Part shown: one piece after another, positions 770-44,195 of the stretch
Numbering within the stretch: position 1 is the stretch's first letter
How the letters are laid out: every line of letters starts with the position of its first letter
Assembly: GCA_035692985.1 (NCBI GenBank)
Contig: DASSHG010000009.1
Span: 7,717 to 71,716 of the forward strand
Length of the DNA: 64,000 nt
DNA from: Candidatus Saccharimonadales bacterium
Lineage (GTDB): Bacteria; Patescibacteriota; Saccharimonadia; Saccharimonadales; UBA4665
Reading direction: 5' to 3'
Notes under the pieces: generated by a model
What the model was told of the DNA's origin: nothing
Seen by the model: the letters and a program-made list of their open reading frames with translations, nothing else
The model's database searches: none
Position numbers and translations under genes: made by a program

Positions 770-778
770 ATTATATCA
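770..778 (-). promoter_or_regulatory. extended -10 box (TGATATAAT) 7 nt upstream of ATG 762; leaderless-type promoter
   Basis: The reverse complement of 770-778 is TGATATAAT, the same 9-mer found at the tRNA and GGDEF promoters in this window. Confidence 0.45.
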
Positions 779-1173
779 TGCTGGTACCCCTCACGGGAGC
801 ACTTTCCAAAAACGGAACCGCCAATCAGCTCGCACGCCTGAACGCGCTCCGCAAGAAGCTGCTCCGGGAAGCCGCCAAAGCGCCCAAGCTTCCGACACCT
901 CCCCCACCACGCCGCATTGGCGAAATCTCCGGGGCCATCAACGAAGTCTTGACCAACGCGTGCGAGCCGCTGCATGCCGCCGAAATCCATCACGCAGTCG
1001 AGCGCCTGCTTGGCCGCTCCGTCAACTACCGCTCCGTCAAAGGCTGTCTGTCCGAGGGAGCGGCGCACCGCCCACCGCGATTTGAGCGCATCAGCTACGG
1101 GCGATACCGGCTAGCAGCAAACGCAGGACTGGCCTCGGCGAACCGCCGCCGAGATCGGGGGAGACAAACCTAG
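778..1173 (+). CDS. detached C-terminal segment of the split serine integrase (winged-helix, HARE-HTH-like pattern); expressed alone it would be 131 aa
   Basis: GC-rich third codon positions. ...EPLHAAEIHHAVERLLGRSVNYRSVKGCLSEGAAHRPPRFERISYGRYRL resembles a winged-helix pattern. The frame is in phase with the int ORF across the 9-bp repeat. ATG 778-780 lies in host DNA just outside the repeat. Confidence 0.55.
   Translation: MLVPLTGALSKNGTANQLARLNALRKKLLREAAKAPKLPTPPPPRRIGEISGAINEVLTNACEPLHAAEIHHAVERLLGRSVNYRSVKGCLSEGAAHRPPRFERISYGRYRLAANAGLASANRRRDRGRQT
782..790. repeat. attL core, direct repeat TGGTACCCC
   Basis: Identical 9-mer to 13121-13129. GC-rich DNA starts here. Confidence 0.7.
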
Positions 1174-2402
1174 AACGGAATATCCTGACTATCGTCTTCG
1201 TGTGCCTCAGCTCCGGCGCCGTCGTCTTGTGGAACCGTTTCAGAACCACCGTTGCCATCGCTCTCAAGCACCTCATCAGATTCCTGACCAAACAGAATTC
1301 GCAGCCGTCGCAATACCTCGTCATAGGTGATTACCGTCAAACTGAATAGCCCTTGTCGGAAATGGTTGAACGAGTCCTGCTGACGCTGATCAAGAGAGTC
1401 GAGCATTCCGCAGATGAGCACGCCCTTTGGATGCACGCGATTCAGCCCCGCGAAGCCGAGTCCAAGCGTATGACTGAAATTGTCAATGGCGACTGCTATC
1501 TGATTCCGCACTTGAACAATCCCACCCGAAAGATCGGCATGGATACTGTAGCTCTCATTTGGCAATCCAGAGCCAACATCTCCACGGTAGATCGAGCCGA
1601 CAAGCCCAGCCGACGGAGTCTTGATGTCCACTACAGAAAAGCTCTTGGTGCTTGCATCTGAGGCGAGAAAGTCCGTCGCCACACCACCTTTACCCTGACG
1701 CCCAAGCGGAAGCTTTCCCCCGAGATAAACCTCATCCCCAAGTATAAACACGGATGCTGAAAAGACTGCTTGGAGAATCCACGGATTACTAGAGAAGAAC
1801 TCGTGCCAGAAGGGCTCATCCCCCCGATGGCTTTGGAGGGCTGCTTCAAGCTCGTCTATGACAGCCTCACGATCAAGTTGTATCTTCGCAATCGCAAGAC
1901 GAGAAGCAAGGTCAGGGTCTTTTTCGGTCAGCGCCTTCCAAAACTCTTGCGAATAGCCATGATCCAGCATCTCTTGAATAGCCTGGGATTTGGTACTGTC
2001 GTCAACGATCAGCACCTCCTCCTTCTTTGCGACAACGAAGTTGGCGTCCCCGTATTGAACACCCTGCCCCTGGACGCGATATAGATGGGTCAGCTTCTCG
2101 AACAGCCGAGTCGTCGCCTCGGTGTCAAGCTCAATCGCCACACCACAGTCGGCAGGGACTTTGGTGAAGTTGACCTCATTCACATCCTTCCATGAACCGT
2201 CTTGGCCGATCTTTTGTCGGATGATTTCCCCTCGCACCCCGCCGGAATGAAGCCCAGGTCGAAACACCGTGCGAGTTCGAGCCGTGGTACTCAGCACGAT
2301 GTCATCCGCCGTGGCGTAACCACGCTTAACGTAGTGCGTCTTAATCTCGTCTGCCAAGTTACCTCCTAAGGTGAACGCGCCGGACAGCGGCCCGGCAGCC
2401 AC
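1170..2402 (-). CDS. sduA: Shedu-type defence nuclease SduA (DUF4263, PD-(D/E)xK)
   Basis: FWHEFFSSNPWILQ..., TDFL...SFSVVDIKTP (D...D-x-K), VQVRNQ, KGVLICG and a C-proximal VITYDEVL match the DUF4263 pattern from memory. Start is GTG 2402; an alternative TTG at 2357 follows GGAGGT. Confidence 0.7.
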   Translation of the reverse strand: MAAGPLSGAFTLGGNLADEIKTHYVKRGYATADDIVLSTTARTRTVFRPGLHSGGVRGEIIRQKIGQDGSWKDVNEVNFTKVPADCGVAIELDTEATTRLFEKLTHLYRVQGQGVQYGDANFVVAKKEEVLIVDDSTKSQAIQEMLDHGYSQEFWKALTEKDPDLASRLAIAKIQLDREAVIDELEAALQSHRGDEPFWHEFFSSNPWILQAVFSASVFILGDEVYLGGKLPLGRQGKGGVATDFLASDASTKSFSVVDIKTPSAGLVGSIYRGDVGSGLPNESYSIHADLSGGIVQVRNQIAVAIDNFSHTLGLGFAGLNRVHPKGVLICGMLDSLDQRQQDSFNHFRQGLFSLTVITYDEVLRRLRILFGQESDEVLESDGNGGSETVPQDDGAGAEAHEDDSQDIPF

Positions 2403-2482
2403 ACACGTAGTCTACGCCCAATGAGATAGTCGTGACAAGCGCTACACGGTCGGCCAGGCAGAGACGGCGTCGCTGCACCTAC

Positions 2483-2584
2483 CTAGCCACCAGCGCCTAT
2501 GCCAAAAAACACGGCAACGATCAGAACGAGTCCCGCAACAATGATGAAAACATTAATCGCCGTAGTATCAGCGAGAACGATCAC
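2483..2584 (-). CDS. 33-aa hydrophobic single-TM peptide (MIVLADTTAINVFIIVAGLVLIVAVFFGIGAGG)
   Basis: Below the ORF-track size cutoff. GTG start preceded by GGAAGGAGAA plus 6 nt. Lies 26 nt downstream of the 162-aa gene on the same strand. Confidence 0.4.
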   Translation of the reverse strand: MIVLADTTAINVFIIVAGLVLIVAVFFGIGAGG

Positions 2585-2610
2585 CTAGATTTCTCCTTCC
2601 TCGGGCGACT

Positions 2611-3099
2611 CTAGTCGATGATTGGCGTAAGCCACGCCGAAGCGTCGGAGAAATTGACGGGCTCAGTTCGAGAGTCAGCTCGTAGCTTGTTGAGGCGAAC
2701 ACGACGCTGGTTCTTGCCATCAAGATTGAAACGATCCTCAATGACCTCTCGCGTGGCTTTGAGGCCCTCGGTAATCTGGAAATCCTCATCGAAAAGAACC
2801 ACGACAACTGAGTCGTACTCGTCCTCGCTAATGGGCGATAAGACGGTGGGCGTGGAGTCCGGCGTTTCGCGACGGGACTTGACCTGGATTCGCTCGCCAG
2901 ACGGGGTCTTCACGTCCCATCCCTTCTGACTAAAGGAAGCCCGCTCGCCCTTGAAGTGGTCGCAGACAATCGCCTCAGCGATATCCCCCACAGGGTTATT
3001 ATTGGTGCGGATAACTCCGAGAGCACGAAGCTGGCGCATAATCGCAACCCAGTCGCTTAATAGCTCACATTTATCCTTGCTACTTGCGTCGTAGGCCAC
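2611..3099 (-). CDS. small PD-(D/E)xK-like nuclease-fold protein (162 aa), family not identified
   Basis: GDIAEAIV...KGWDV...RIQVKSRR reads as a D...(E/Q)xK-type motif. GTG start with GGTGGAG upstream. Confidence 0.5.
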   Translation of the reverse strand: MAYDASSKDKCELLSDWVAIMRQLRALGVIRTNNNPVGDIAEAIVCDHFKGERASFSQKGWDVKTPSGERIQVKSRRETPDSTPTVLSPISEDEYDSVVVVLFDEDFQITEGLKATREVIEDRFNLDGKNQRRVRLNKLRADSRTEPVNFSDASAWLTPIID

Positions 3100-3123
3100 G
3101 CCTTATCTGCTCCACCCCGACGG

Positions 3124-3294
3124 CTACGTCTTCGGACGTTCGCCAGCCTCTTCACGAAGCATTTCAATTTCCCGTCGCACTCCATTCAGTAAGTCCCAAG
3201 TGTACTCATCGTCTTCGGTCTTGATCTGAGCAGCAAGCTGACGGACAACCTCCTCAAGATTCCGCAGAGCGTTGAGTATCGTTGTTGAGGTCAT
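3124..3294 (-). CDS. 56-aa helical/charged small protein
   Basis: Translated by hand as MTSTTILNALRNLEEVVRQLAAQIKTEDDEYTWDLLNGVRREIEMLREEAGERPKT. Its ATG abuts the upstream stop (TAGATG). Below the ORF-track cutoff. Confidence 0.4.
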   Translation of the reverse strand: MTSTTILNALRNLEEVVRQLAAQIKTEDDEYTWDLLNGVRREIEMLREEAGERPKT

Positions 3295-3693
3295 CTAGCC
3301 CTGGTTTTCGTCTGCGAGCTGGCGTGCAGTAAGCCCAACTACGAGGGCAAGGAAGGCAGCTGCATCAGCTTGCCTCTCAGCCGCTGCCACGACCGATCCA
3401 GTGGCCTCGCCCTCTGGTACCTGTAAATGCAAGGGAATTGCAGCACGATGCGCTTCCATGCCTTCCCAAAAAGCTCGCTGCGCATCATCACCCATACCGA
3501 CCGATTCCCGAAGGGCTCGTAGCTGATCGGTCGTTTTCTCGCCGCCCGTGAAGCTCTGCTCGATCGCTTCACGCACCGTGATCTCACCGGCCTCGGCTTG
3601 CGCCAAAAGCTCGTCGCTAACTGGCTCAAGCGTCACGAAGTCTCCCCAGCGTCTGAACGCCTCTCTGACCTCCTCTGGGCCGATCTCCGCCAC
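3295..3693 (-). CDS. hypothetical protein (132 aa)
   Basis: GC-rich ORF with a GTG start. It is the second gene of a same-strand operon. No recognisable motif. Confidence 0.55.
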   Translation of the reverse strand: MAEIGPEEVREAFRRWGDFVTLEPVSDELLAQAEAGEITVREAIEQSFTGGEKTTDQLRALRESVGMGDDAQRAFWEGMEAHRAAIPLHLQVPEGEATGSVVAAAERQADAAAFLALVVGLTARQLADENQG

Positions 3694-3717
3694 CGAGCGA
3701 AGCCTACCGCCTGTCCG

Positions 3718-4050
3718 CTAGCTCCTGACGATCTGCGAAACGCGCTGATGGCTCATGCCCATCACCTGGGCGATGGCCTTCATCGGCAGACCGTCCTTGT
3801 AGGCGGCGCGAACGGCTTCGTCCCGCTCCTCGCGGAGCCGCTCGGCCGCCTTCTCCAGCTCGCCTTGACGACGGGCATAGTCCTTGGCAAAGGCCTTTAG
3901 GCGGGTTTTGGCCTGCGGTGCATGGCGTTTGGGACGGGCGATACAGAGGATGCTCTGCGGTATTCCTGCTAGTCGGTTAGCATGAAGTCCTACGCAGGGA
4001 GAGGCGGCCGCCTCATCCGACCTCGATTCACAAGGAGGCGTCGTTGCCAA
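3718..4050 (-). CDS. helix-turn-helix DNA-binding protein (sigma-70 region-4-like C-terminus); start uncertain
   Basis: The C-terminus is DGLPMKAIAQVMGMSHQRVSQIVRS. The only in-frame start candidates are TTG 4050, a TTG near 4110 and ATG 4221. The longest version overlaps the well-supported gene at 4044. Confidence 0.5.
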   Translation of the reverse strand: MATTPPCESRSDEAAASPCVGLHANRLAGIPQSILCIARPKRHAPQAKTRLKAFAKDYARRQGELEKAAERLREERDEAVRAAYKDGLPMKAIAQVMGMSHQRVSQIVRS

Positions 4051-4889
4051 GCCGAGTCCGACTTTCCACCAGCCGCGTGGCAGTTCTGATCGGAGCCGTC
4101 CTCTTGCTCCTGCCCACGTCAACGCTTGCAGCCAGCGCCGGGGGCAAGCACCGTCGTCACGCTCATCCCCAGGTGTCCTGGACGCTGCCGCATGTAGTGA
4201 GCGAAGGCCAAACGATTCCATTTACCTGGAAGGCCACCGGCCACCTTGGCCCCAACTACCGCCTCGTCGTCCAGCGGCCGGTGGGTACCGCCCATACCTG
4301 GAAAACCATGCTGAGACTGAAAACCCGTAAGGGCTCAGCCGAGCTGCCAGGACAAAAGCTTGGCACCTACCGCTTCCGACTGGCAGCGCTCCGAGGACAC
4401 CTGGTGCTGGCCCAGAAAGTCCTCGGCATCGATGCGTTCGGTCAAGTGCCGTTCTCGGTGCTGCTGCGCAATGGCTACCTGACTACTGGACACCTGGAAA
4501 ACGGCGTCTATGCCACGCCATCAAGCAGCTTTCCCTATGTCGGGGGAGCCTACGTTGGAGACCATGGACGACCGAACACGGTCTTTTCGGTGAACCACAA
4601 CCGGTGCTCGGCAGTCCACGTTGGCTTCGTGCTCGGTGAAACGCCCGGCGAAGGCTATAGCTACCCCGCATCAATCTACGGTGTCGTTACGCTGGTACAG
4701 CAGTCCCGTGATCCGGTTGCATCGGAAGTGCCCTTCAATGGCATCGGCTCGGTAGACGCGGAACTTGTGCCTGGTCAGACCTGGTCCCTGCTGGTTGAAG
4801 AAAACAACCGGGAAGGCAAGCTAGGGTCGCCGACCGTCTACTTCAATGGCTACGCCATCTGCGACAGCACGGAATCGTTCTTCTCGTAA
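4044..4889 (+). CDS. secreted hypothetical protein (281 aa)
   Basis: TTG start 5 nt after AAGGAGG. Signal-peptide-like N-terminus RVAVLIGAVLLLLPTSTLAASA. Confidence 0.6.
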   Translation: MPSRVRLSTSRVAVLIGAVLLLLPTSTLAASAGGKHRRHAHPQVSWTLPHVVSEGQTIPFTWKATGHLGPNYRLVVQRPVGTAHTWKTMLRLKTRKGSAELPGQKLGTYRFRLAALRGHLVLAQKVLGIDAFGQVPFSVLLRNGYLTTGHLENGVYATPSSSFPYVGGAYVGDHGRPNTVFSVNHNRCSAVHVGFVLGETPGEGYSYPASIYGVVTLVQQSRDPVASEVPFNGIGSVDAELVPGQTWSLLVEENNREGKLGSPTVYFNGYAICDSTESFFS

Positions 4890-4955
4890 AGCGCCAGGGT
4901 GGAGCGGGCGTCTCAACTTCGTTGATACTCCGATCTGTGCATACTTCACCCTCTA

Positions 4956-5738
4956 ATGGCGGACGGAGCGAATAGAGCCGCAGAACTGCTTCAGCAAGCC
5001 TATGCGAGCGGAGAGCTTTCTGAGGAGTCCTCACAGGCTCTGATCGCGGCTGGAGACGTTGGTCGGGAGGTCGGCTACGCGCTCGGTGGGGGCGGCCACG
5101 GTGACGAATTGTTGCTTGTCACTATCCTTGCCGACGATTCAGGGTCTATCTCAGTCATTCCGGGCGGTGCGGAGGCGGTTCGCCAGGGTCACAACCACTG
5201 CCTTGACGCGCTCGACACCGAACAGGGAGCCGAAGCGCTCGTCCACACGCGCTATCTGAATGCCGGCAGCTTGTCCCCCTATCGAGGTCTAGCTACTGCC
5301 ACGCGCCTTAGCGCCGAGAACTTTAATCCCGTAGCCGGTCATACGCCGCTCTACAGGCAATCCGTTCTCACGCTAGGTGCCGTCATGGCGAAGGTTCAAG
5401 AGCAGAAGGCCGAGGGGCGGCTTGTCAGGGCTTTCACGCTCATCATTACCGACGGCGGCGACAATGCATCGGGCCAGGTAAGCGCCCAGCATGTGAACTT
5501 CCTCGTCCGCGACATGCTGGACTTCTCAGACGATTACATCGTCGCCGGTATGGGCATCGGTCAACGCGCCACATTCCAGCCCATCTTTCGCGCGATGGGA
5601 ATCCCGGAGGGTTGGATTCTCACCGCCGATGCCTTGCCAGAGGAGATAAGCAAGCTGTTCCGCAAAATCGCGCAATCCCTCCAGCTTGCGGCAAGCGGCG
5701 AGGCTGGCTGGCTTCAACTGGAGGCCGGACCGCCCTGA
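4956..5738 (+). CDS. von Willebrand factor A (vWA) domain protein with intact MIDAS
   Basis: LLLVTILADDSGSIS (DxSxS), GHTPLY (Thr) and LIITDGGDN (Asp) are arranged as in vWA domains. Confidence 0.7.
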   Translation: MADGANRAAELLQQAYASGELSEESSQALIAAGDVGREVGYALGGGGHGDELLLVTILADDSGSISVIPGGAEAVRQGHNHCLDALDTEQGAEALVHTRYLNAGSLSPYRGLATATRLSAENFNPVAGHTPLYRQSVLTLGAVMAKVQEQKAEGRLVRAFTLIITDGGDNASGQVSAQHVNFLVRDMLDFSDDYIVAGMGIGQRATFQPIFRAMGIPEGWILTADALPEEISKLFRKIAQSLQLAASGEAGWLQLEAGPP

Positions 5739-6094
5739 GATGGTGGCGATTGACGCCCATCGCCGGTTTCCTCCTCCTGTGGCCAGCAGCGAGCCAGCTC
5801 CTGGTCGGCATCCGGACCGGCATAAATGCCAAGACCGGGCTTGTGGGCTAATGGCCGCTCTTCGTCCAAGTCGAAAGCGTGGCCAGTGTAGACATTTTTC
5901 GAACCAAAGAAGTTTTCGACACTGTCAATTCGCGATAGGTGGGTCGCATCTGCTCGATCTTCCTGATTTTCTAAAAAGACAAAGCCCTTCGCCGCATATT
6001 CCGGCCAATTGTCTTCGGTAATAATGTCACGCCGTACCCGCACGAAGTTGGGGTCGCTATCAGCGGTTGGCTGCTGGGCTGAGGATTCACTCAT
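5714..6094 (-). CDS. hypothetical protein (126 aa)
   Basis: ORF with an ATG start. It converges on, and overlaps, the vWA gene by 25 nt. It diverges from the J-domain gene across an AT-rich ~65-nt spacer. Confidence 0.45.
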   Translation of the reverse strand: MSESSAQQPTADSDPNFVRVRRDIITEDNWPEYAAKGFVFLENQEDRADATHLSRIDSVENFFGSKNVYTGHAFDLDEERPLAHKPGLGIYAGPDADQELARCWPQEEETGDGRQSPPSQGGPASS

Positions 6095-6159
6095 ATATTA
6101 CATCCTGTTTACATACCCAGCGTACGCCCCCCTCCCGTGTAAGTCCAGAGGGTGATGCA

Positions 6160-6924
6160 ATGCCCGACGATGCATCACTGGACTTCTTCAAGCTGCTTGG
6201 GGTCGGGCGCGATGCCTCCGACCAAGAAATCAAGAAAGCGCACAAACGGCTGGTCCGGAAGTACCACTCAGATACTGGCGGCGCGACAGCGAACGACGAG
6301 AAGTTCATGAAAATACAGGCGGCATATGAGACGCTTAAAGATCCCTACAAGCGAGCAGAACACGAAGCCGAGCTAGGAAAACAGGAGCAAGCGAAGATGC
6401 GTCGCCGCGAGCAAGCACGGCGGCGCCGAGCCCGCGCCCCAACGGAAGACGCGACGAATATCTTCGGGGAACACATCCGTGATTCCCACTCCAATACTGG
6501 ACCGGGCGTGTCGTCTCGGCCACCACACGCCGCGAGCCCACCCCCAAGAGCATCACCAGCCCCTCCGCCGCCAGGCTCTACCAACCGGCCGAAGCCGTCA
6601 CCGACCCCAGCGCCATCTTACCCGCCTCCGATGAGATGGTACGAGTATTTCCTCGCGGATTCCGTATCCGGAAAACTCCTCGCGCTGTTCGCATCAGCGG
6701 GACTGACGACTGCGGTCATTCTCATCCCCCATGCGGTGGCTACCGGCATAGAAGCGGGGGCATCTCAAGATCACAATTTTCTCGCGGCGCTTGTACTTCT
6801 CGCGGCCGGGCTCGCGGGCGGTATCGGGGGAATCTTTGGAATACTCCTGACGGCATACTGTTTCTTCTCCCTTATCGCTGTGACCCTACGGGAGATAGGC
6901 AGCGCCTTGCGTCAGACGCCGTAA
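6160..6924 (+). CDS. J-domain membrane protein with HSD in place of HPD
   Basis: LDFFKLLGVGRDASDQEIKKAHKRLVRKYHSDTGG...KIQAAYETLKDPYKRAEHE is a J domain. A Pro-rich linker and 2-3 C-terminal TM helices follow. ATG 6160 is Met32 of the track ORF. Confidence 0.7.
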   Translation: MPDDASLDFFKLLGVGRDASDQEIKKAHKRLVRKYHSDTGGATANDEKFMKIQAAYETLKDPYKRAEHEAELGKQEQAKMRRREQARRRRARAPTEDATNIFGEHIRDSHSNTGPGVSSRPPHAASPPPRASPAPPPPGSTNRPKPSPTPAPSYPPPMRWYEYFLADSVSGKLLALFASAGLTTAVILIPHAVATGIEAGASQDHNFLAALVLLAAGLAGGIGGIFGILLTAYCFFSLIAVTLREIGSALRQTP

Positions 6925-7952
6925 GTGTCGGCCTCCTCACCGGATAGTCGATAGAAGTCCGCCACCCGATACCAGTCCTCATCAATGAGGCCGATGAATT
7001 CATCGGCTGCTCGTTGCCAACGGTGGTAATCGCAGTCGCACTCTCCGCCGTCCGGCTCTAGGCAGTTCGCCCACCGGAGCCATACCCCCATCAGCTCTTG
7101 GCGTCGCTCACCAGCCTCGACCAAGAGATTTCCAAAGCCGTCCAACTCCTCATGCGGCGCATCAGCCAGCAACGTCCGGAGCCAGGAGCTGTCGGTCTCG
7201 CCTAGCGGCGCAAGAAGCTGGAGCTGGTAAATAGCGTCGGCCGCGGCGATCTCGCAGTCCATCTCCGCCAGCAGCCACAGGCCGCCTTGCTCATCCACGA
7301 AACGCTGCAAGGCCAGCTCAAACCTAGCCCACTGCCAGGTGATGTTGGCCAGGCGGTCAGAGACGGCGTGCCGGTCCTCCTCCTCGGCCGCCAGGTATCC
7401 CCTGAGCACCACCAGGTCATTTCTCATGCCAGCTACCGGTGTCCAGATGCGCCGGTAGCTACGGTGTTGCTCCAGCCAGTCGATGCCCAGGCCGGACTGC
7501 TCCGGCGTGCGCTCGGCTTCCATTCGGTGCCGGTGTCGCAAGCGGTAAGCGCTGTCAGCCGCACACAACTCGTCGGCAACCGCTTCGAGCAGCAATGGCT
7601 CGCGCTCCTTGCGGAAATGTTCCTGCGAGACGTGCAGGGCTCCGGCGGCTTGCCGTCGCCGCTCCTTGAGCAAGGAGCCACGAGTACCCGTAGCCAGGCC
7701 CAGCAAGATAGAGGCTGGCCCATTGCTACCGCCATCCAACCGCTGCGCGGCCTCCACGATCAGGGTATGGGCAGCCACCGCGAGATCGGTGTCTTGCTCG
7801 CTAGCTGACTTAGCTTTCACGAGCGCCAAGCCCAGGACCGTCGAGCAGGCCCGTAGGCCCTCGGTCGTGACGCCGCCGCGCAGCAAGTCTCCCAGCTCAG
7901 CGGCCAGCTCATCAGGTGACGGGATAGCTGCCTCGTTCATCAAGTTCCCCAC
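6912..7952 (-). CDS. hypothetical protein (346 aa; start GTG 7952 or ATG 7940)
   Basis: Long GC-rich ORF with a Cys/His-containing C-terminal part (CLEPDGGECDCDYH). No family recognised. Confidence 0.6.
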   Translation of the reverse strand: MGNLMNEAAIPSPDELAAELGDLLRGGVTTEGLRACSTVLGLALVKAKSASEQDTDLAVAAHTLIVEAAQRLDGGSNGPASILLGLATGTRGSLLKERRRQAAGALHVSQEHFRKEREPLLLEAVADELCAADSAYRLRHRHRMEAERTPEQSGLGIDWLEQHRSYRRIWTPVAGMRNDLVVLRGYLAAEEEDRHAVSDRLANITWQWARFELALQRFVDEQGGLWLLAEMDCEIAAADAIYQLQLLAPLGETDSSWLRTLLADAPHEELDGFGNLLVEAGERRQELMGVWLRWANCLEPDGGECDCDYHRWQRAADEFIGLIDEDWYRVADFYRLSGEEADTYGV

Positions 7953-8316
7953 TAAAGCACCGGGAAGCCCCCACTTGCTTCCTCGACGATGCGGTCGTGA
8001 ACAAACCGACCGTCTTTCTCATCGTCGCCATCGTAACCCTGAGCTTCTTGGTCTCGGCTGGACCGGCGCTGGTGGCTCTCGCTAACGCTGCCGTTCCACT
8101 CGTCCTGGTCGTCGGCGTGGTGGTCGTGGCGCTACGGCTCGTCTTTTTCCACACCCGACGCTGGTGATGGCAGGTGGAGATTTCAAGTTGTGCATTCCAC
8201 GCCTTGACCGGCCAACTGAAGCAGGCGGACAATGGAGGGTTACGTCTGAACCTGAGTTCCTCGCCCTCATCCCCGAAAACGTGACCTTCAAGAACTAAAT
8301 GAAGGGAGGTATCACC

Positions 8317-8469
8317 ATGCCAAGAAAACGAAAACCGACCAGGCAGGTCCGGGTCCGCGACATACCGCTGTCTGAGATTGACGAGACGAAGGTCGCCCTG
8401 GCGTTCTGGCTGATGGCCAAGCGCCTCATTGACGAACAGGACGCCGAAAGCGAATCGGTAGCGCCGTGA
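8317..8469 (+). CDS. 50-aa basic/acidic small protein, first gene of the transfer operon
   Basis: GAAGGGAGG lies 7 nt before the ATG. Its stop overlaps the next start (GTGA). Sequence MPRKRKPTRQVRVRDIPLSEIDETKVALAFWLMAKRLIDEQDAESESVAP. Confidence 0.45.
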   Translation: MPRKRKPTRQVRVRDIPLSEIDETKVALAFWLMAKRLIDEQDAESESVAP

Positions 8470-10547
8470 CCCACAAGAAGCTGGACTGGTTTCAGCTTCA
8501 GTTTCCGCAGGGAGTTGAGACAGACCACCTGCTGGCTGGCCTGTCGTCGTTCTCCGGCGTCCCGTTCCGCGCCCGCATCGTCCTCGACCTGACCGCCACG
8601 GCGGAAGGCATCAAGCACTTGCTGGGCGTAACGCCCAAAGACACCGGCACCGTCACCGCCGCGCTGCGCGCCGCCATGCCGAGTCTGCGCCTGGCTCACG
8701 TCGAAGCGCCACCGCGCCCACCACGCCGCTGGCTGTGGCAGACAGCGCCCCGCGTCGCCAGCCTGCGTAGTGAGGAGCCAATCGCCATTGCCGCCGCTCT
8801 CTTGTCCAGCCTGTTCCCGCTGGACGGTGATGAGGCTGTCCGTCTCACCTGGACGCTGCGCTCCTGGCCACGGCCGCCGTTGCCAGTCGGCCGCTATGAC
8901 GCCCAGGACGGACGAGAAAGGGTAGTGCGCGCCAAGCTGAGCCTGCCGGGCCTTGCCGCCTACGGCGAGCTGTCAACTGTCGCCAAAACGCCAGCCCGCC
9001 GTGCCGAGCTGACTCAGCGCACCGCCTCGGCCCTATGGAGCCTCAGCACTCCCTTTGGTCGCTTGGCCGTTGACCCATACTGGCTCGGACAAGTAGCCCG
9101 CCTGCTTGGCCTGCGCGGCCGTTACCTGAGCGCTCCAGAGCTGGCCGCCGTCATCGGCTGGCCGGTCGGCAGTCCCGACCTACCAGGCCTGGAGCTGGGC
9201 GCGGCCAAGCGGCTGGTGCCCGCCGCCAGCCTGCCCGAAGACGGCCGGGTTCTCGGTGTAAGCGACTTCGCCGGAATCACCCGACCGGTTGCTATCTCCG
9301 CCACCGCCTCGACGCGCGGGCTGTACGTCCTCGGCCCCACCGGCACCGGTAAGACCAATCTACTCAAGAACCTCATCCGCGATGACCTCGAGCAGGGCCG
9401 GGGCCTGGTGGTCGTGGAGACCAACGGCGATCTCATCCAAGAGCTGTGCGATGTCATCCCGCCGGAGCGTGTGAATGACGTAGTGCTGCTCGACCCGACC
9501 GACCGCGACAGCGCCGTCGGCTTCAACCCCCTCGCCAGCGGTTCCGAGCCCTCCCTGATCGCCGACCAGCTCTCTGAGCTGTTCCAGCGGCTCTGGGAGG
9601 CGTTCTGGGGACCGCGCACCGCCCAGCTGACCCACATGGGCTTGCTAACCCTGGCGCGCCGTCCTGGTTCCACGCTACTCGACCTGCCGCGCCTCTACCT
9701 TGACTCCGCTTTCCGCGAGAAGGTGTTGGCCGACCTGGACGATCCTCTCGGCCTCGGCCCGGACTGGCAGTGGTTCGAGAACCTGCCGACCCGCGAACAG
9801 GCCAACGTCGTCGCCCCCCTGCTCAACAAGGTGCGCGCCTTCACCGCGCGTCCGGCCATCCGCGCCATCGTCGGCCAGCCGAAGCCGCGCCTCACCATGC
9901 ACCAGATCATCGAGCAGAAAAAGGTGCTGCTCGTCCACCTGCCAAAGGGCCTGATCGGCTCCGAGACCGCACAACTGCTCGGCTGTCTCGTCCTCACAGC
10001 CGTTTGGCAGGCCGCCGCCGAACGGGCCGCCTTGCCGCCGAGCCAGCGCCACCCGGTCTCGCTCTACGTCGATGAGGTACAGGACTTCGCCTCGGCCCCG
10101 GTGCCCTGGGACGAGATGTTCGCCCAGGGGCGCAAGTACGGGCTGGCTCTGACCGCCGCCCATCAGAACCTTGAGCAACTGCCGAAGGAGCTGAGGGAGG
10201 TTGTGCTGGCCAATGCCCGTTCAAAGGCGGTGTTCGCCCTCAGCGCCACGGACGCGAGGACTATGGAGCGGCTGTTTGAGCCCGCCCTGACAGCCGCCGA
10301 CCTGCAAGCCCTTGACGCTTACTCGGTCGCCGCCCTGGTGGCACTGGACAATGGCAGCGCCGCCCGGCCGGTGACGCTGACCACGCCGCCGCCCGTGAAG
10401 TCACTGGGCAGCAGGGCGCAGGTCCGCGCGACCTCGCACCAACATTACGCCCGCCCGCGAGCTGAGATCGAGGCCGAACTGCGCCGAGGCGTAACTCCAA
10501 GGCGACCCAAAACGCCAGTCGGCCGCAAGCCCCGGAGGGCGTCATGA
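8466..10547 (+). CDS. TraD/VirD4-family (type IV secretion DNA-transfer) P-loop ATPase without N-terminal TM
   Basis: Walker A GPTGTGKT and Walker B LYVDEVQDF. The C-terminal FAQGRKYGLALTAAHQNLEQL resembles the TraD/TraG coupling-protein module. Confidence 0.7.
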   Translation: MTHKKLDWFQLQFPQGVETDHLLAGLSSFSGVPFRARIVLDLTATAEGIKHLLGVTPKDTGTVTAALRAAMPSLRLAHVEAPPRPPRRWLWQTAPRVASLRSEEPIAIAAALLSSLFPLDGDEAVRLTWTLRSWPRPPLPVGRYDAQDGRERVVRAKLSLPGLAAYGELSTVAKTPARRAELTQRTASALWSLSTPFGRLAVDPYWLGQVARLLGLRGRYLSAPELAAVIGWPVGSPDLPGLELGAAKRLVPAASLPEDGRVLGVSDFAGITRPVAISATASTRGLYVLGPTGTGKTNLLKNLIRDDLEQGRGLVVVETNGDLIQELCDVIPPERVNDVVLLDPTDRDSAVGFNPLASGSEPSLIADQLSELFQRLWEAFWGPRTAQLTHMGLLTLARRPGSTLLDLPRLYLDSAFREKVLADLDDPLGLGPDWQWFENLPTREQANVVAPLLNKVRAFTARPAIRAIVGQPKPRLTMHQIIEQKKVLLVHLPKGLIGSETAQLLGCLVLTAVWQAAAERAALPPSQRHPVSLYVDEVQDFASAPVPWDEMFAQGRKYGLALTAAHQNLEQLPKELREVVLANARSKAVFALSATDARTMERLFEPALTAADLQALDAYSVAALVALDNGSAARPVTLTTPPPVKSLGSRAQVRATSHQHYARPRAEIEAELRRGVTPRRPKTPVGRKPRRAS

Positions 10548-10663
10548 GCGCGCCGCTCGCCCGTCCGGTCGCGTCGAGCAGACCGCCGCTCATTCCAGCT
10601 CTCAAAGCCCCAACCCGGCCCATTTCGCTAACGACTGATTACGGAAAACGAGGTTGGCAATGA
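10544..10663 (+). CDS. possible 39-aa Pro/Arg-rich micro-ORF
   Basis: ATGA overlaps at both ends (10544-10547 and 10660-10663), with CGGAGGG upstream. Its composition could equally be GC-rich noise. Confidence 0.3.
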   Translation: MSAPLARPVASSRPPLIPALKAPTRPISLTTDYGKRGWQ

Positions 10664-11478
10664 GCGCCCGCTACGTCACGGCAGCGGCACTGCGGAAGCT
10701 GGCCGCCCAGCTCACCGAGCGGGACCACGAACTCGTCCAGACGGTCTGCGTCCTGCGCTTCGTGTCCGGCTCCCAGCTTCAACGGATGCACTTCACGGAC
10801 GCCGAAGGCGACGACGCCAACGCCCGCACCGCTCGCCGGGCTCTACTGCGCCTCGTCAGCCTGGGCGTGCTGGAGCGTCTGCCACGCCAGGTCGGAGGCG
10901 TCCGCGCCGGGAGTGCTGGATTCGTCTACCGGCTTGGCCGTGCCGGTCAGCGCCTGGCCGTCGAGCGGGGCTGGTCGTCGAACAGCCGCCGCCAGTGGCA
11001 GTCGCACGTACCGGGCAGGTTGTTCCTCGACCACGCCCTCCAGGTTGCTGAACTGCACACGCTGATCGTGGAAGCCGACCGCGCCGGGCTGGTCGAGTTG
11101 CTGTGGCTGGAGGCAGAGCCCGCCTGCTGGCGGTCCTACGGCCAGCGCGCCACTCTCAAGCCGGACAGCCATGTCCGGCTGGGCATCGGTGACTACGAGG
11201 ACAGCTACATGATTGAGGTGGACATGGGAACCGAGAGCAGCCGGACGCTGGAGCGCAAGCTGGGCGACTACCTGACCTACGAAGCCAGCGGGCGCGAGCA
11301 GGCCGAGCACGGCGTCTTCCCCAAGACGCTCTGGCTGGTGCCGGACGCAGAGCGGGCGAGGGTCATCGAGAGCTGCATCGAGCGGCTGCCGCGCTCAGCG
11401 CATCGGCTGTTCGCCGTCAACCAGTTCAAGGACGTGATCGCGGCCGTCGCGACCCCTGAACCAGCGGACAAAGGCTAG
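10660..11478 (+). CDS. replication-relaxation (Replic_Relax-like) family protein
   Basis: RRALLRLVSLGVLERLPRQVGGVRAGSAGFVYRLGRAGQRL (wHTH) and KPDSHVRL...YMIEVDMGTES...LERKLGDY match my recollection of the family. ATG 10660 follows ACGAGG. Confidence 0.65.
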   Translation: MSARYVTAAALRKLAAQLTERDHELVQTVCVLRFVSGSQLQRMHFTDAEGDDANARTARRALLRLVSLGVLERLPRQVGGVRAGSAGFVYRLGRAGQRLAVERGWSSNSRRQWQSHVPGRLFLDHALQVAELHTLIVEADRAGLVELLWLEAEPACWRSYGQRATLKPDSHVRLGIGDYEDSYMIEVDMGTESSRTLERKLGDYLTYEASGREQAEHGVFPKTLWLVPDAERARVIESCIERLPRSAHRLFAVNQFKDVIAAVATPEPADKG

Positions 11479-11526
11479 GAACGACTTGTTCCTGCAAGTA
11501 AAATAGAAGGAATAGAGAGGAGGGAT

Positions 11527-13329
11527 ATGAACCAAGAACAACCAACTAAACGCGCCGTCATCTACCTGCGCGTGTCGTCGGCCCAGCAGGCCGACAAGGA
11601 CTTCGACGCCGAGGGCTTCTCCATCCCCGGCCAACGCGAAGCCTGCACCCGCGAGGCCGACAAGCTCGGCGCTGAGATAGCTGATGAATACATCGACCGG
11701 GGCGAGTCCGCCAAGACCGCCCGCCGACCGGCGCTCCGGGCAATGCTCGACCGACTAGGGCGCAGCGACATTGACTACGTGATCGTCCACAAGGTGGACC
11801 GCCTGGCAAGGAACCGCGCCGACGACATCGAGATCGTCATGACCATCCGCAAAGCCGGAGCCCAGCTCGTCTCCGTCACCGAGAACATCGACGAGACGCC
11901 CTCGGGCCTGCTGATGCACGGCATCATGTCGTCAATCGCCGAGTTCTACAGCCGCAACCTGGCGGCTGAGGTCATGAAGGGGACGACGCAGAAGGCCAAG
12001 AGCGGGGGCACGCCGTTCCGTGCACCGGTCGGCTATCTGCACGACCGCCTGACGGTCGATGGCCGCGAGGTCCGCACCGTGGTTCTCGACCCGGAGCGCG
12101 CCCCGTTGATCCGCGAAGCCTTCAAGCTCTACACCACCGGCGACTACTCGCTTGCCGAGCTGGCGGCGATCATGGAGGAACGCGGCCTGCGCTCCCGCCC
12201 GACCCGCAAGTACTCGTCCCGCGCCCTCAAAGTCAAGGATCTGCACGCCATCCTGCGCAACTCCTACTACGTAGGCGTCGTCACCTACAACGGCAAGACC
12301 TATCCCGGTCGACACGAGCCGCTGGTGGACGAGGCGACGTTTGAGGAAGTTGGGGAGCTACTGACTTCCAAGCGCGTCAGCGGCGAACGCCCCTGGCGGC
12401 ACTTCCACTACCTGCGCGGTTCCATTTACTGCGGCGAGTGCCGCCGACGCCTGATCTACAGCCGCGCCAAAGGCAAGGGCGGCGAGTACGAGTACTTCGT
12501 CTGCGGGGGTCGCCAGCACGGCAACTGCAAACAGCGCAGCCACCGCGTGGAAGCAGTCGAGGCAGCCGTAGAGAACGCCTACGCCGACAAGGAGCTGAAC
12601 GACGAGCAGCGCGAGAAAGTCCGGCAGGCGATCCAGTCTCAGGTAGACGCCCTGACGCTCTTGTCCGCCGAGAAGGTGGCCGAGGGCGAAACGAAACTCG
12701 CCGAGCTTGAGAGGCAGGAACGGAAGCTCCTGACCGCCCACTACGCCGACCAGATATCCGAGGCGCTGTTCGCCGAGGAGCAGAAACGGATCAAACGGGA
12801 GCGCGTCGGTGCCGAAAAGCGCATCGACAGCCTGAGCGTCGATCACGAACAAGCCATGCAGACGCTCGACCTGGCACTCGCCCTGACGGACGACACCCAG
12901 CGGGCCTATCTGCAAGCTGGGCCGCAAGAACGGCGGCTACTGAACCAGGGGCTCTCAGACCGATTCGAGATACGGGACGAGGAAGTCGTCTGCGACCACC
13001 GAGCCGAGCCCTTCGGCCAGCTCCGCAAGCTCGGCAAGGGCTGGGACGGCAGCGAAGCCGCCACCAAAGCCAAAACCCTCGCCTCTGCTGAGAGAGACGA
13101 GGGTTTGAACGTCGCAAGCTTGGTACCCCGGGTAGGATTCGAACCTACGACCTATGGGTTAGAACTCCATTGCTCTATCCAGCTGAGCTACCGGGGCTTG
13201 GGGTGTTACGTGGTGCGGGATGGCGGAATCGAACCGCCAGCTCTAGCTTGGAAGGCTAGCGTATTAGCCGTTATACAAATCCCGCATAACAGAGGTGATT
13301 ATATCATACATGCTACAATCACAGCATGA
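11527..13329 (+). CDS. large serine recombinase (integrase); the last ~70 codons are read antisense through host tRNA genes
   Basis: AVIYLRVSSAQQ (catalytic Ser), VHKVDRLARN, a recombinase domain, the zinc ribbon CGECRRRL...FVCGG...GNC and a coiled coil. There is no stop before the att core at 13121. Stop TGA 13327-13329 lies in host DNA. Confidence 0.85.
   Translation: MNQEQPTKRAVIYLRVSSAQQADKDFDAEGFSIPGQREACTREADKLGAEIADEYIDRGESAKTARRPALRAMLDRLGRSDIDYVIVHKVDRLARNRADDIEIVMTIRKAGAQLVSVTENIDETPSGLLMHGIMSSIAEFYSRNLAAEVMKGTTQKAKSGGTPFRAPVGYLHDRLTVDGREVRTVVLDPERAPLIREAFKLYTTGDYSLAELAAIMEERGLRSRPTRKYSSRALKVKDLHAILRNSYYVGVVTYNGKTYPGRHEPLVDEATFEEVGELLTSKRVSGERPWRHFHYLRGSIYCGECRRRLIYSRAKGKGGEYEYFVCGGRQHGNCKQRSHRVEAVEAAVENAYADKELNDEQREKVRQAIQSQVDALTLLSAEKVAEGETKLAELERQERKLLTAHYADQISEALFAEEQKRIKRERVGAEKRIDSLSVDHEQAMQTLDLALALTDDTQRAYLQAGPQERRLLNQGLSDRFEIRDEEVVCDHRAEPFGQLRKLGKGWDGSEAATKAKTLASAERDEGLNVASLVPRVGFEPTTYGLELHCSIQLSYRGLGCYVVRDGGIEPPALAWKASVLAVIQIPHNRGDYIIHATITA
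13073..13106. repeat. perfect 9-bp inverted repeat (AAACCCTCG N16 CGAGGGTTT) 14 nt from the att core
   Basis: Seen directly. It lies inside the int ORF. It could be part of an att arm or a hairpin terminating the tRNA transcript. Confidence 0.5.
13121..13129. repeat. attR core, direct repeat TGGTACCCC (reverse complement of the tRNA-Arg 3' end GGGGTACCA)
   Basis: Identical to 782-790. GC-rich DNA ends here. Confidence 0.7.
13121..13197 (-). tRNA. tRNA-Arg (anticodon TCT), CCA encoded
   Basis: Hand-folded cloverleaf GCCCCGG/TA/GCTC..GAGC/ATGGA-GTTCTAA-CCCAT/AGGTC/GTAGG-TTCGAAT-CCTAC/CCGGGGT-ACCA. It has an A31-C39 mismatch and a G1-U72 pair. Confidence 0.85.
13211..13285 (-). tRNA. tRNA-Gly (anticodon TCC), CCA encoded
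   Basis: GCGGGAT..CTAGC-CTTCCAA-GCTAG..GGCGG-TTCGATT-CCGCC-ATCCCGC-ACCA. Confidence 0.9.
13289..13306 (-). promoter_or_regulatory. tRNA-Gly/Arg promoter: TGATATAATCACCTCTGT, ending 3 nt before the mature tRNA 5' end
   Basis: The 15-nt TATAATCACCTCTGT is identical at 16274-16288 (+) and 19513-19527 (-). Confidence 0.6.
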
Positions 13330-44166: not shown

Positions 44167-44195
44167 TTGCTTTGCTTAATTTATTATGATATAAT
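44167..44195 (+). promoter_or_regulatory. promoter TTGCTT-17 nt-TATAAT with TG extension, 6 nt before ATG 44202 (leaderless type)
   Basis: Read directly: TGATATAAT-actacc-ATG. Confidence 0.5.

Follow-up and report, generated by a model that had tools for sequence, protein, structure and literature searches.

A large serine integrase gene that appears to be split by its own integration at a tRNA-Arg gene

Results

The integrase reading frame ends in host DNA

We analysed a stretch of 64 kb (hereafter the window) from a contig labelled Candidatus Saccharimonadales in its record name. It contains an integrated element of about 12.34 kb (787..13123) with an integrase gene, int, at its right end and, at its left end, a short open reading frame (ORF) that is likely the detached 3' part of the same gene. 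The int ORF (11527..13329, plus strand, 600 aa) is the sole long ORF of its region in the ORF listing. Its first in-frame stop is the TGA at 13327-13329, which lies in host DNA, and the element itself encodes none; the translation ends in ...NVASLVPRVGFEPTTYG...HATITA* (this segment is also given as ...ERDEGLNVASLVPRVGFEPTTYGLELHCSIQLSYRG...HATITA*). ARAGORN detects two tRNA genes on the minus strand, tRNA-Arg(tct) at 13121-13197, which is the integration target and has been left intact, and tRNA-Gly(tcc) at 13211-13285. The last 66 residues of the int ORF are the antisense of these two genes and of the spacer between them. The element-encoded part of the gene covers codons 1-533 (11527..13125, plus strand), and residues 535-600 (13130..13329, plus strand), ending at the same TGA, form a host-encoded replacement tail, in which the GC content at third codon positions (GC3) falls to 0.49 from 0.83 in int.

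The sequence TGGTACCCC is present exactly twice in the window, at 782-790 and at 13121-13129, for an expectation of 0.23 copies in shuffled sequence, where 2 of 100 shuffles reach two copies. The right copy corresponds to the CCA, the discriminator and the acceptor end of tRNA-Arg. Between the repeats the GC content is 0.58-0.71, as against 0.47-0.55 outside, with a step at both ends of the element. The left copy lies at the beginning of ORF 778..1173 (plus strand), annotated as hypothetical protein VFH99_02650, whose element-encoded part is 787-1170. We observed that the codon phase is identical at both cores, TTG GTA CCC from 13120 and CTG GTA CCC from 781, and that residues 1-531 of Int joined to residues 2-131 of ORF 778-1173 give 661 aa with no stop. 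The original prediction had claimed, from the letters of this DNA, that int has no stop within the element and reads through the antisense of tRNA-Arg and tRNA-Gly, that the two cores share one phase and that 531 + 130 residues can be joined in frame; translation and the ARAGORN calls bear this out.

In two related elements, L003 and L004, the attL fragments were located with a hidden Markov model (HMM) of the C-terminal winged helix-turn-helix (wHTH) part, and there, as in the window, the GTA codon has one phase at attL and attR. What attL and attR have in common is TGGTACCCC in the window, GTAC in L003 and TACC in L004, the intersection being TAC. Since the shared cores shrink to TAC across these three elements, the crossover dinucleotide is placed inside the 9-mer, at the TA or AC of GGTACC, in what would be the codon of Val533. 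The inferred crossover thus lies at TA 785-786 (or AC 786-787) in the attL core (782..790) and at TA 13124-13125 (or AC 13125-13126) in the attR core (13121..13129), the latter being the discriminator and position 72 of tRNA-Arg. The CCA end of tRNA-Arg after integration, and possibly its discriminator too, come from the element. The predicted attP of the element, at the joined junction, reads ...GAACGTCGCAAGCTTGGTACCCCTCACGGGAGCACTTTCC..., and its predicted attB, at the empty site, ...TTATATCATGCTGGTACCCCGGGTAGGATTCGAACC....

The junction follows a complete serine recombinase core

The Pfam matches of Int are to serine-recombinase families only, and no tyrosine-recombinase fold (Phage_integr_3) is among them. 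On the plus strand, a Resolvase domain (PF00239, residues 10-161, 11554-12009, E = 6.7e-34) is followed by a recombinase domain (PF07508, residues 189-280, 12091-12366, E = 2.8e-14) and a zinc ribbon (PF13408 Zn_ribbon_recom, residues 296-352, 12412-12582, E = 1.7e-09). Further downstream, the AlphaFold2 (AF2) model gives a coiled coil by secondary structure (about 12601-12954), the last strands of the zinc-ribbon domain (12955-13002) and, by its predicted local distance difference test score (pLDDT), a disordered linker (about 13009-13125). The long helices 359-406 and 412-436 lead back to strands 477-492, a coiled coil inserted in the zinc-ribbon domain. Among 22 aligned sequences, the invariant residues include Y13, R15, S17, S18, C302, C305, C326 and C334.

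The AF2 model of the 661-aa protein is confident up to residue 492, residues 495-544 are disordered, and the junction residues 532-534 fall inside this stretch. By its domains Int is a large serine recombinase (LSR), with the complete canonical domain set upstream of the junction, and it is predicted to catalyse attP x attB recombination.

The fragment at attL encodes a winged helix and has no start codon of its own

Modelled alone with 35 homologues, the C-terminal part reaches a pLDDT of 88.8 and consists of a long helix (about 814-879, plus strand) and then an H-b-H-H-b-b winged helix, with its core at about 916-1113 (plus strand). A match to the Pfam family HARE-HTH (residues 583-643) is weak and below the curated cut-off. 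In a Foldseek comparison with the PDB, the model retrieved generic winged-helix DNA-binding domains only (Rok, the Z-alpha domain of ZBP1, Fur/Zur), with a best E-value of 1.7e-3.

The GC contents at the three codon positions of 787-1170 are 0.70, 0.55 and 0.70. The dN/dS ratio of the wHTH part is 0.21-0.33 (0.30-0.33 against three homologues), and that of the int core 0.14-0.25. The ATG at 778-780, where the attL ORF starts, sits in host DNA, in frame and one codon ahead of the junction codon, which in the window is CTG; TTG 949 is the single in-frame start that the element part contains, and it lies inside the winged helix, after 55 codons that include the conserved long helix. By these measures the wHTH part is coding, yet it appears to have no start of its own in the element, and because of this it could be produced in the free form only as a fusion.

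We also carried out an exhaustive HMMER search for the wHTH part, which returned at least 536 homologous clusters, and most of the best 150 have lengths of 100-190 aa. The upstream extensions of the homologues beyond the junction are mutually unrelated, as expected for host read-in, and one of them is read-through of an alpha/beta hydrolase. Slightly more than half of the homologues bearing the junction motif (53 of 96) start at most 3 residues from it, 47 with M, 5 with V and 1 with L.

Integrases with antisense tRNA tails form a family

Nearly all of the 120 best homologues retrieved with the reconstructed protein have lengths of 540-570 aa, cover ~80% of the query and end near residue 531-535, and none of the 120 has a stop ahead of the junction. 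Their C-termini, ...SLVPLRGFEPRFPD, ...SLVELGGFEPPTSW... or ...MVRAEGLEPPR..., are antisense translations of tRNA acceptor and T arms. A regular expression found such a tail in 104 of the 120 and inspection by eye in about 5 more (about 109 altogether). Because the tails run into tRNA antisense family-wide, the missing element-encoded stop is a family trait rather than an accident of sequencing.

The genome loci (n = 80) are nearly all from Actinomycetota, namely Solirubrobacterales, Acidimicrobiia, Streptomyces, Mycobacterium, Nocardia, Microbacterium and others. ARAGORN places an opposite-strand tRNA over 59 of 83 locus int ORFs, and 68 of the 83 have the tail motif. The tRNA species overlapped are at least nine (Ala, Val, Leu, Arg, Glu, Gly, Lys, Phe and Met). 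Both the host-encoded tails, in length and sequence, and the linker upstream of the junction, in length, vary across homologues.

The integrase P0005 in L002, a member of the close clade, was considered as an attP form and rejected: in L087 this int abuts TGGTACCGCTAACTGGACGGTATTCCAACC, its tail has 18 codons and no wHTH follows. The sequence TGGTACCGCTAACTGGACGGTATTCCAACC (L087 10281-10320, and the same in L002 at about 2030-2070) matches tRNA-Glu over 11 nt and continues into a decayed-looking T-arm, with no tRNA called there; it may be a secondary or eroded attachment site. In P0058 (L109) the stop comes about 30 codons past the junction, ahead of GmrSD genes.

Scanning viral contigs with the single 661-aa sequence gave no relative. 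An alignment-based scan of viral contigs retrieved 41-45% relatives only, most with tRNA-antisense tails and a few with stops of their own, and no LSR-wHTH fusion was among them. A metagenome scan with the int C-terminus returned 14 loci and no clean free form, and the four matches of a junction-spanning word-index search are all wHTH fragments.

Element ends pair in frame and natural fusions exist

Two further attL/attR pairs, from distant clades, were found through the occurrence of int and wHTH on one contig. They are P0046/P0199 (L110/L112), at tRNA-Leu(gag) with core TGCGGCTG and an element of about 22 kb, and P0073/P0321 (L114/L115), at tRNA-Ala(ggc) with core TGGAGCTA and an element of about 26 kb. 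The phase is kept in both, attL ATG CGG CTG corresponding to attR GTG CGG CTG in the former and ATG GAG CTA to GTG GAG CTA in the latter. Altogether, the ORF is reconstituted in frame in five of five attL/attR pairs, which cover four tRNA targets and 55-90% integrase identity, despite the variation in linker length.

In the two distant pairs the ATG of the attL ORF is made of a host A and the TG of the core, at the place where attR has GTG (L110 3001-3012 and L114 3001-3012). An encoded CCA, read in antisense, was considered as the invariable source of the attL start codon, which was wrong for these pairs: there the codon is a host A plus the antisense of discriminator and position 72, and their tRNA genes have no encoded CCA.

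An unsplit ORF is present in P0108 (674 aa, Logan contig L001), which aligns with the reconstruction in one high-scoring segment pair over residues 4-640, crossing the junction. A close relative, P0112, occupies tRNA-Leu(cag) in integrated form. P0108 and P0112 share 82% protein identity as far as ...SLVR(L/M)(S/R)G and are unrelated past this point; likewise, their DNAs are nearly identical through AAGCTTGGTGCG and diverge immediately 3' of it. We take P0108 and P0112 to be a natural attP/attR pair. The ORF upstream in L001 shows no similarity to the Replic_Relax gene of the window.

Further in-frame LSR-wHTH fusions are present in L054 (663 aa), L058 (1-973) and L006, and P0172 and P0224 are fragments of the fused form. 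In L006 (2-1889) the reading frame of a different LSR continues into the wHTH of a downstream element, and L054 (5347-7336) has a full fused LSR and, 2.4 kb downstream of it, another LSR whose ORF enters tRNA-Leu.

The attP half-sites imitate tRNA arms and one overlaps an antisense hairpin

The P' half-site of attP, which is the inner arm of attL (787..815), encodes ...PLTGALSKN and mimics a tRNA acceptor and T-arm with a 5-bp insertion. Indeed, P' is a copy of the tRNA arm B' with 5 nt inserted before the T-loop-like motif: in the window P' reads TACCCC..GGGA GCACT TTCCAAAA and B' reads TACCCC..AGGA TTCGAACC, and in L110/L112 P' is ...GGAG CACTT TCGAACC and B' ...GGAG TCGAACC. A net gap of 5 nt between P' and B' was obtained in four of six unsupervised global alignments, and the remaining two fit by eye. 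The P half-site, the inner arm of attR (13099..13123), encodes GLNVASL and carries GGTTTGAAC, which in the half-site comparison resembles the inverted tRNA T-loop motif GGTTCGAAT. Across 10 relatives the P arm is nearly invariant at the DNA level, synonymous sites included. A structural study of the LI integrase placed the motif of the zinc-ribbon domain 5 bp nearer the centre in attB than in attP (PMC3783163). The att anatomy predicted here, with short sites, a central dinucleotide and a 5-bp offset, fits the known LSR geometry.

A GC-rich hairpin (13069..13110, minus strand) lies 15 nt downstream of the CCA end of tRNA-Arg and is followed by UUUUGGCUUUGG, with a U-rich tract to about 13062. 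Its position is antisense to int codons 515-528, those of the KAKT...EGLN motif, and it overlaps with the outer P half-site. For 10 close relatives of equal length, RNAalifold gave 18 pairs, 7 of them with compensatory double changes, at -30.5 kcal/mol; for 27 diverse hairpin regions, whose variable stems MAFFT misaligned, it gave no structure. Comparable hairpins follow the tRNA in most family loci (most of L003-L084), flanked by (T)TC(A/G)AACC...GGTT(T/C). A simple terminator scan did not flag 13069-13110. The hairpin is a candidate terminator that probably serves the tRNA operon anew after integration. The protein motif (K/R)TP-x7-GG(L/S)xV is conserved because the hairpin is encoded antisense to it.

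Cargo of the element and its host

Next to the wHTH fragment, and convergent with it, lies a Shedu SduA defence gene (1170-2402, minus strand; SduA_N 7.6e-11, SduA_C 7.6e-17). Related elements bear other defence cargo at this place, GmrSD in L109 and DUF4917 in L001. The element further encodes a DnaJ-domain protein by Pfam (6067-6924), a TrwB/TraG-like ATPase of 693 aa (8466-10547; TrwB_AAD_bind 9.2e-10, TraG P-loop weak) for which Pfam gave no FtsK_SpoIIIE match, and a Replic_Relax protein (10654-11478; PF13814, 1e-31). The order ATPase, Replic_Relax, int is common to the relatives L003 and L004. One feature of the integrative and conjugative elements of actinomycetes (AICEs), an integrase at one element end flanked by att repeats, is present; in the Pfam search, none of RepSA, RepAM, Prim-Pol or the other Rep families used by Ghinet et al. 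was found in the element, Replic_Relax being the only match to a replication module. We regard the element as AICE-like and integrative, presumably placed at the tRNA-Arg(TCT) 3' end by its own LSR.

The integrase of the window is 89-90% identical to those of metagenome-assembled genomes of Solirubrobacterales and Actinomycetes that target tRNA-Glu, the target here being tRNA-Arg(tct). The Saccharimonadales label of the contig and the nearly exclusive occurrence of integrase relatives in Actinomycetota could reflect transfer from an actinobacterial host to a Saccharibacteria epibiont, or a binning error.

The motif ATGATATAAT, which resembles an extended -10 element, has three copies in the window for 0.12 expected: 770-779 (minus), 13298-13307 (minus) and 44186-44195 (plus). 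One copy is upstream of tRNA-Gly and another between attL and a minus-strand ATG at 763-761. Because the TATAAT is only 7 nt from this ATG, the spacing suggests a leaderless host transcript beside the insertion site.

Discussion

We consider it likely, overall, that the element splits int when it integrates and that a 661-aa ORF ending in a winged helix would be rebuilt by excision. The structural part of this proposal we hold with high confidence; that the split has any regulatory consequence is tentative, somewhat short of evenly balanced. In the free (attP) form there would be a single 661-aa int ORF encoding Int-wHTH, with attP inside it, in the disordered linker between the LSR core and a module of ~110 aa (long helix and winged helix). 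Integration would leave the Int core at attR with its last 127 residues swapped for 66 host-encoded ones, and would strand the wHTH-coding fragment at attL, at a distance of 12.3 kb and preceded by a start codon from the host, while the element side would regenerate the 3' end of the tRNA. This arrangement is common to a large and mostly actinobacterial family. The protein would then differ by state, being Int-wHTH when the element is free and Int-deltaC, possibly together with a free wHTH protein, when it is integrated.

The wHTH may bias the enzyme towards integration, or control the expression of int and of the element, and its loss would change activity or directionality. Because the LSR core is intact, we favour modulation over inactivation. 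Such a change would parallel IntP/IntX of phage Mx8 and the SSV-type integrases. A stronger version, in which integration acts as a covalent switch throughout the family, with a wHTH that licenses or biases integration, is removed by insertion and is maybe re-expressed from a start codon at the junction, is possible but rather doubtful.

Several observations weigh against the proposed split and its consequences. The full-length AF2 model gives low confidence to the C-terminal part and shows no docking of the wHTH with the core; Foldseek gave the wHTH generic folds and no specific function match. L001 was examined as the first 12 kb of a 22-kb contig, so that its free or circular form is putative; these 12 kb contain no tRNA. 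The chromosomal fusions in L006, L054 and L058 are best read as junctions of tandem arrays and not as free elements; as tandem arrays at one tRNA, they imply that attR-like sites are open to newcomers. Not all relatives have the module: P0005 (L087) and P0058 (L109) stop 18-30 codons past the junction and have no wHTH. Fused forms are rare in databases, and the top 120 matches of the wHTH profile are all stand-alone short ORFs of 85-205 aa. The motif L.GALSN, being the translation of the P' half-site, is no evidence of translation, because the DNA half-site explains it. Finally, both excision and the activity of Int are predicted from assembled sequence. As to the use of one tRNA by several elements, we also observed in L004 (11640-11680, 19201-19275) a tyrosine-integrase island between the element, where a partial copy of tRNA-Glu is kept, and the intact tRNA-Glu.

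The original prediction of a split int gene is supported by the five pairs in frame, by the natural fusions and by the absence of any homologue with a stop before the junction. Its winged-helix-like C-terminal domain was recovered by AF2, the coding signal of ORF 778-1173 by GC3 and dN/dS, and the intactness of the catalytic, recombinase, zinc-ribbon and coiled-coil parts after integration by Pfam and AF2. Colinear full-length homologues had been named as a check, and P0108 is colinear with the reconstruction. A sequencing error hiding a stop, mentioned as a way in which the model could fail, is contradicted by the sharing of the missing stop across the family, and a crossover elsewhere than in the 9-mer by its mapping inside it. 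It had also been said that recombinases ending near residue 530 on a stop of their own, and independent genes for the homologues of ORF 778-1173, would speak against the model. The integrase homologues do end at 540-570 aa, but on host stops in tRNA antisense and not on their own. Nearly all wHTH homologues are indeed annotated as small genes standing alone, but these genes start at the junction. The split model predicts both observations. The role that the original prediction gave to the split, a switch of directionality or an immobilisation, is a tentative one.

The main rival, which we find unlikely but not negligible, is that the fused ORF is real and its split a neutral by-product: attP, which has to imitate the 3' end of a tRNA, would happen to sit in a tolerant linker, the core would be competent in both states and the wHTH would serve another purpose, for example the transcriptional control of element genes. 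Such a view accommodates the position of all the canonical LSR domains upstream of a junction that lies in a disordered linker, the freedom of the host-encoded tails in length and sequence, the relatives with no wHTH past the junction and the many attL fragments that gain an ATG there and would be separately producible. It accounts less well for a reading frame and an absence of stops kept over 55-90% identity and four tRNA targets, and for a free-form wHTH with no start of its own, which suggests selection for the fusion. Moreover, Mx8 integration alters the specificity of the integrase (PMC6070905), and the split fragments of SSV-type integrases are described as inactive (PMC8371274).

A less probable alternative is that the wHTH is translated from the attL start codon and acts in trans with Int-deltaC, as a directionality factor or a repressor, in a two-component system. 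The host A plus core TG that makes an ATG in the two distant pairs and the 47 of 53 junction-starting homologues that begin with M are in its favour, as is the conserved, confidently modelled long helix before the wHTH, a possible docking element. In addition, engineered fusions of an integrase with a recombination directionality factor (RDF) show that tethering alters directionality (PMC5737554). However, the DNA upstream of the fragment is host DNA and offers no conserved promoter or ribosome-binding site; in the window the junction codon is CTG, ATG 778 is a chance host codon and the sole promoter-like match ends at 779; and gene-caller bias and the composition of tRNA trailers may account for the excess of ATG. 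A module promoting excision would also make the fused form favour excision, the wrong direction for a free element.

A chimeric assembly, in which a GC-rich element of actinobacterial type was misjoined to a Saccharimonadales contig, is very improbable. The contig label, set against the Actinomycetota relatives, and the sharp GC step at both ends would agree with it, but the two junctions coincide with a single, exact position in a complete tRNA gene and show a direct repeat and the half-site geometry of LSRs, and host DNA flanks the element on both sides in one contig, which is not a pattern that an assembler makes; the finding at the level of the family would stand regardless. That ORF 778-1173 is an independent gene whose phase matches by a 1-in-3 chance is barely credible: a single 9-mer with its phase is weak evidence when 2 of 100 shuffles give two copies, and databases do list the homologues as separate hypothetical proteins, but the five in-frame pairs, the natural fusions, the end of P0108/P0112 homology exactly at the junction, the 55 conserved first codons with no element-encoded start and the mutually unrelated upstream extensions make chance untenable.

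The value of serine integrases is that a single protein and two short sites suffice for unidirectional integration, and how this is reversed or locked is a central question. A protein composition that depends on the state of the element would be a natural route to the control of directionality or immobilisation. If the split int gene does act as a covalent switch, directionality or mobility would be set by the architecture of the int gene and not only by a separate RDF, and the family would be a serine-recombinase equivalent, in bacteria, of the 'suicidal' integrases of archaea, one whose catalytic core stays intact. For annotation, a spurious tail from the host is included in integrases that read into tRNA antisense (about 109 of the 120 closest homologues), the at least 536 clusters of small 'hypothetical' proteins are homologues of a detached integrase end, many of them starting at the junction, and the pairing of int with wHTH reveals both ends of an element together. 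For engineering, attP half-sites that imitate conserved tRNA arms with a 5-bp offset, and a candidate terminator antisense in coding sequence, may be of use.

Comparison with known systems

Canonical LSRs (phiC31, Bxb1, A118/LI and SprA of SPbeta) share with the present integrase the domain order, the short att sites, the central dinucleotide and the 5-bp attP offset. To our knowledge, their attP lies outside int and the protein is unchanged between states. Their directionality is set by a separate RDF. Engineered integrase-RDF fusions, in which a C-terminal module tethered to an LSR changes the att pairs that are recombined, resemble the layout described here (PMC5737554); however, they are artificial, and sequence gives the present wHTH no identity as an RDF. 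Serine recombinases rarely target tRNA genes, according to the serine-recombinase passages of Ghinet et al. 2011 (PMC3218068), which describe AICEs with serine recombinases and, among them, eight Mycobacterium elements in a tRNA-Leu gene; these passages make no mention of an int that runs into a tRNA or is split. The eight elements may belong to the same broad family, as the loci found here include Mycobacterium, Nocardia and Streptomyces. In a full-text literature search we found no description of a serine integrase with attP in its own ORF.

In the SSV-type tyrosine integrases (SSV1, pTN3 and pT26-2), as here, attP lies in the int ORF, insertion into a tRNA gene partitions int and excision restores it. 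These enzymes are tyrosine recombinases, with another fold and another chemistry, their hosts are archaea and their split yields two inactive fragments, whereas here the enzyme is a serine recombinase, the hosts are bacteria and only an accessory C-terminal module is removed from a catalytic and DNA-binding core that is intact and predicted to be active. A review of archaeal systems describes self-disrupting recombinases as exclusive to archaea and the split SSV-type fragments as inactive pseudogenes (PMC8371274); self-splitting outside archaea breaks this rule. The original prediction had named the partition of int as a hallmark of archaeal SSV-type integrases, and the precedents are indeed tyrosine integrases, but a bacterial one exists in Mx8.

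Mx8 integrates at a tRNA gene, too. Its attP lies inside int, and integration gives a recombinant gene with a new 3' end, whose enzyme is active with altered specificity (PMC6070905). IntP/IntX of Mx8 thus resembles the present system in being bacterial, in having attP in the 3' part of int and in acquiring a new host-encoded 3' end; it is, however, the tyrosine integrase of a single phage, and no discrete folded domain is known there as a detached, potentially expressible fragment. In mycobacteriophages BPs and Brujita, as reportedly described by Broussard et al. in 2013, attP lies inside a coding gene and integration changes the C-terminus of the product and, through it, how the protein behaves, a state-dependent switch. 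There the split gene is the repressor and the integrase is a tyrosine recombinase, whereas here it is the integrase itself that would be split. The precedents that we found for an attP internal to int are tyrosine recombinases only, the archaeal SSV-type integrases and that of phage Mx8, and an LSR with an int-internal attP would be a new combination, with the LSRs on one side and the int-internal attP on the other.

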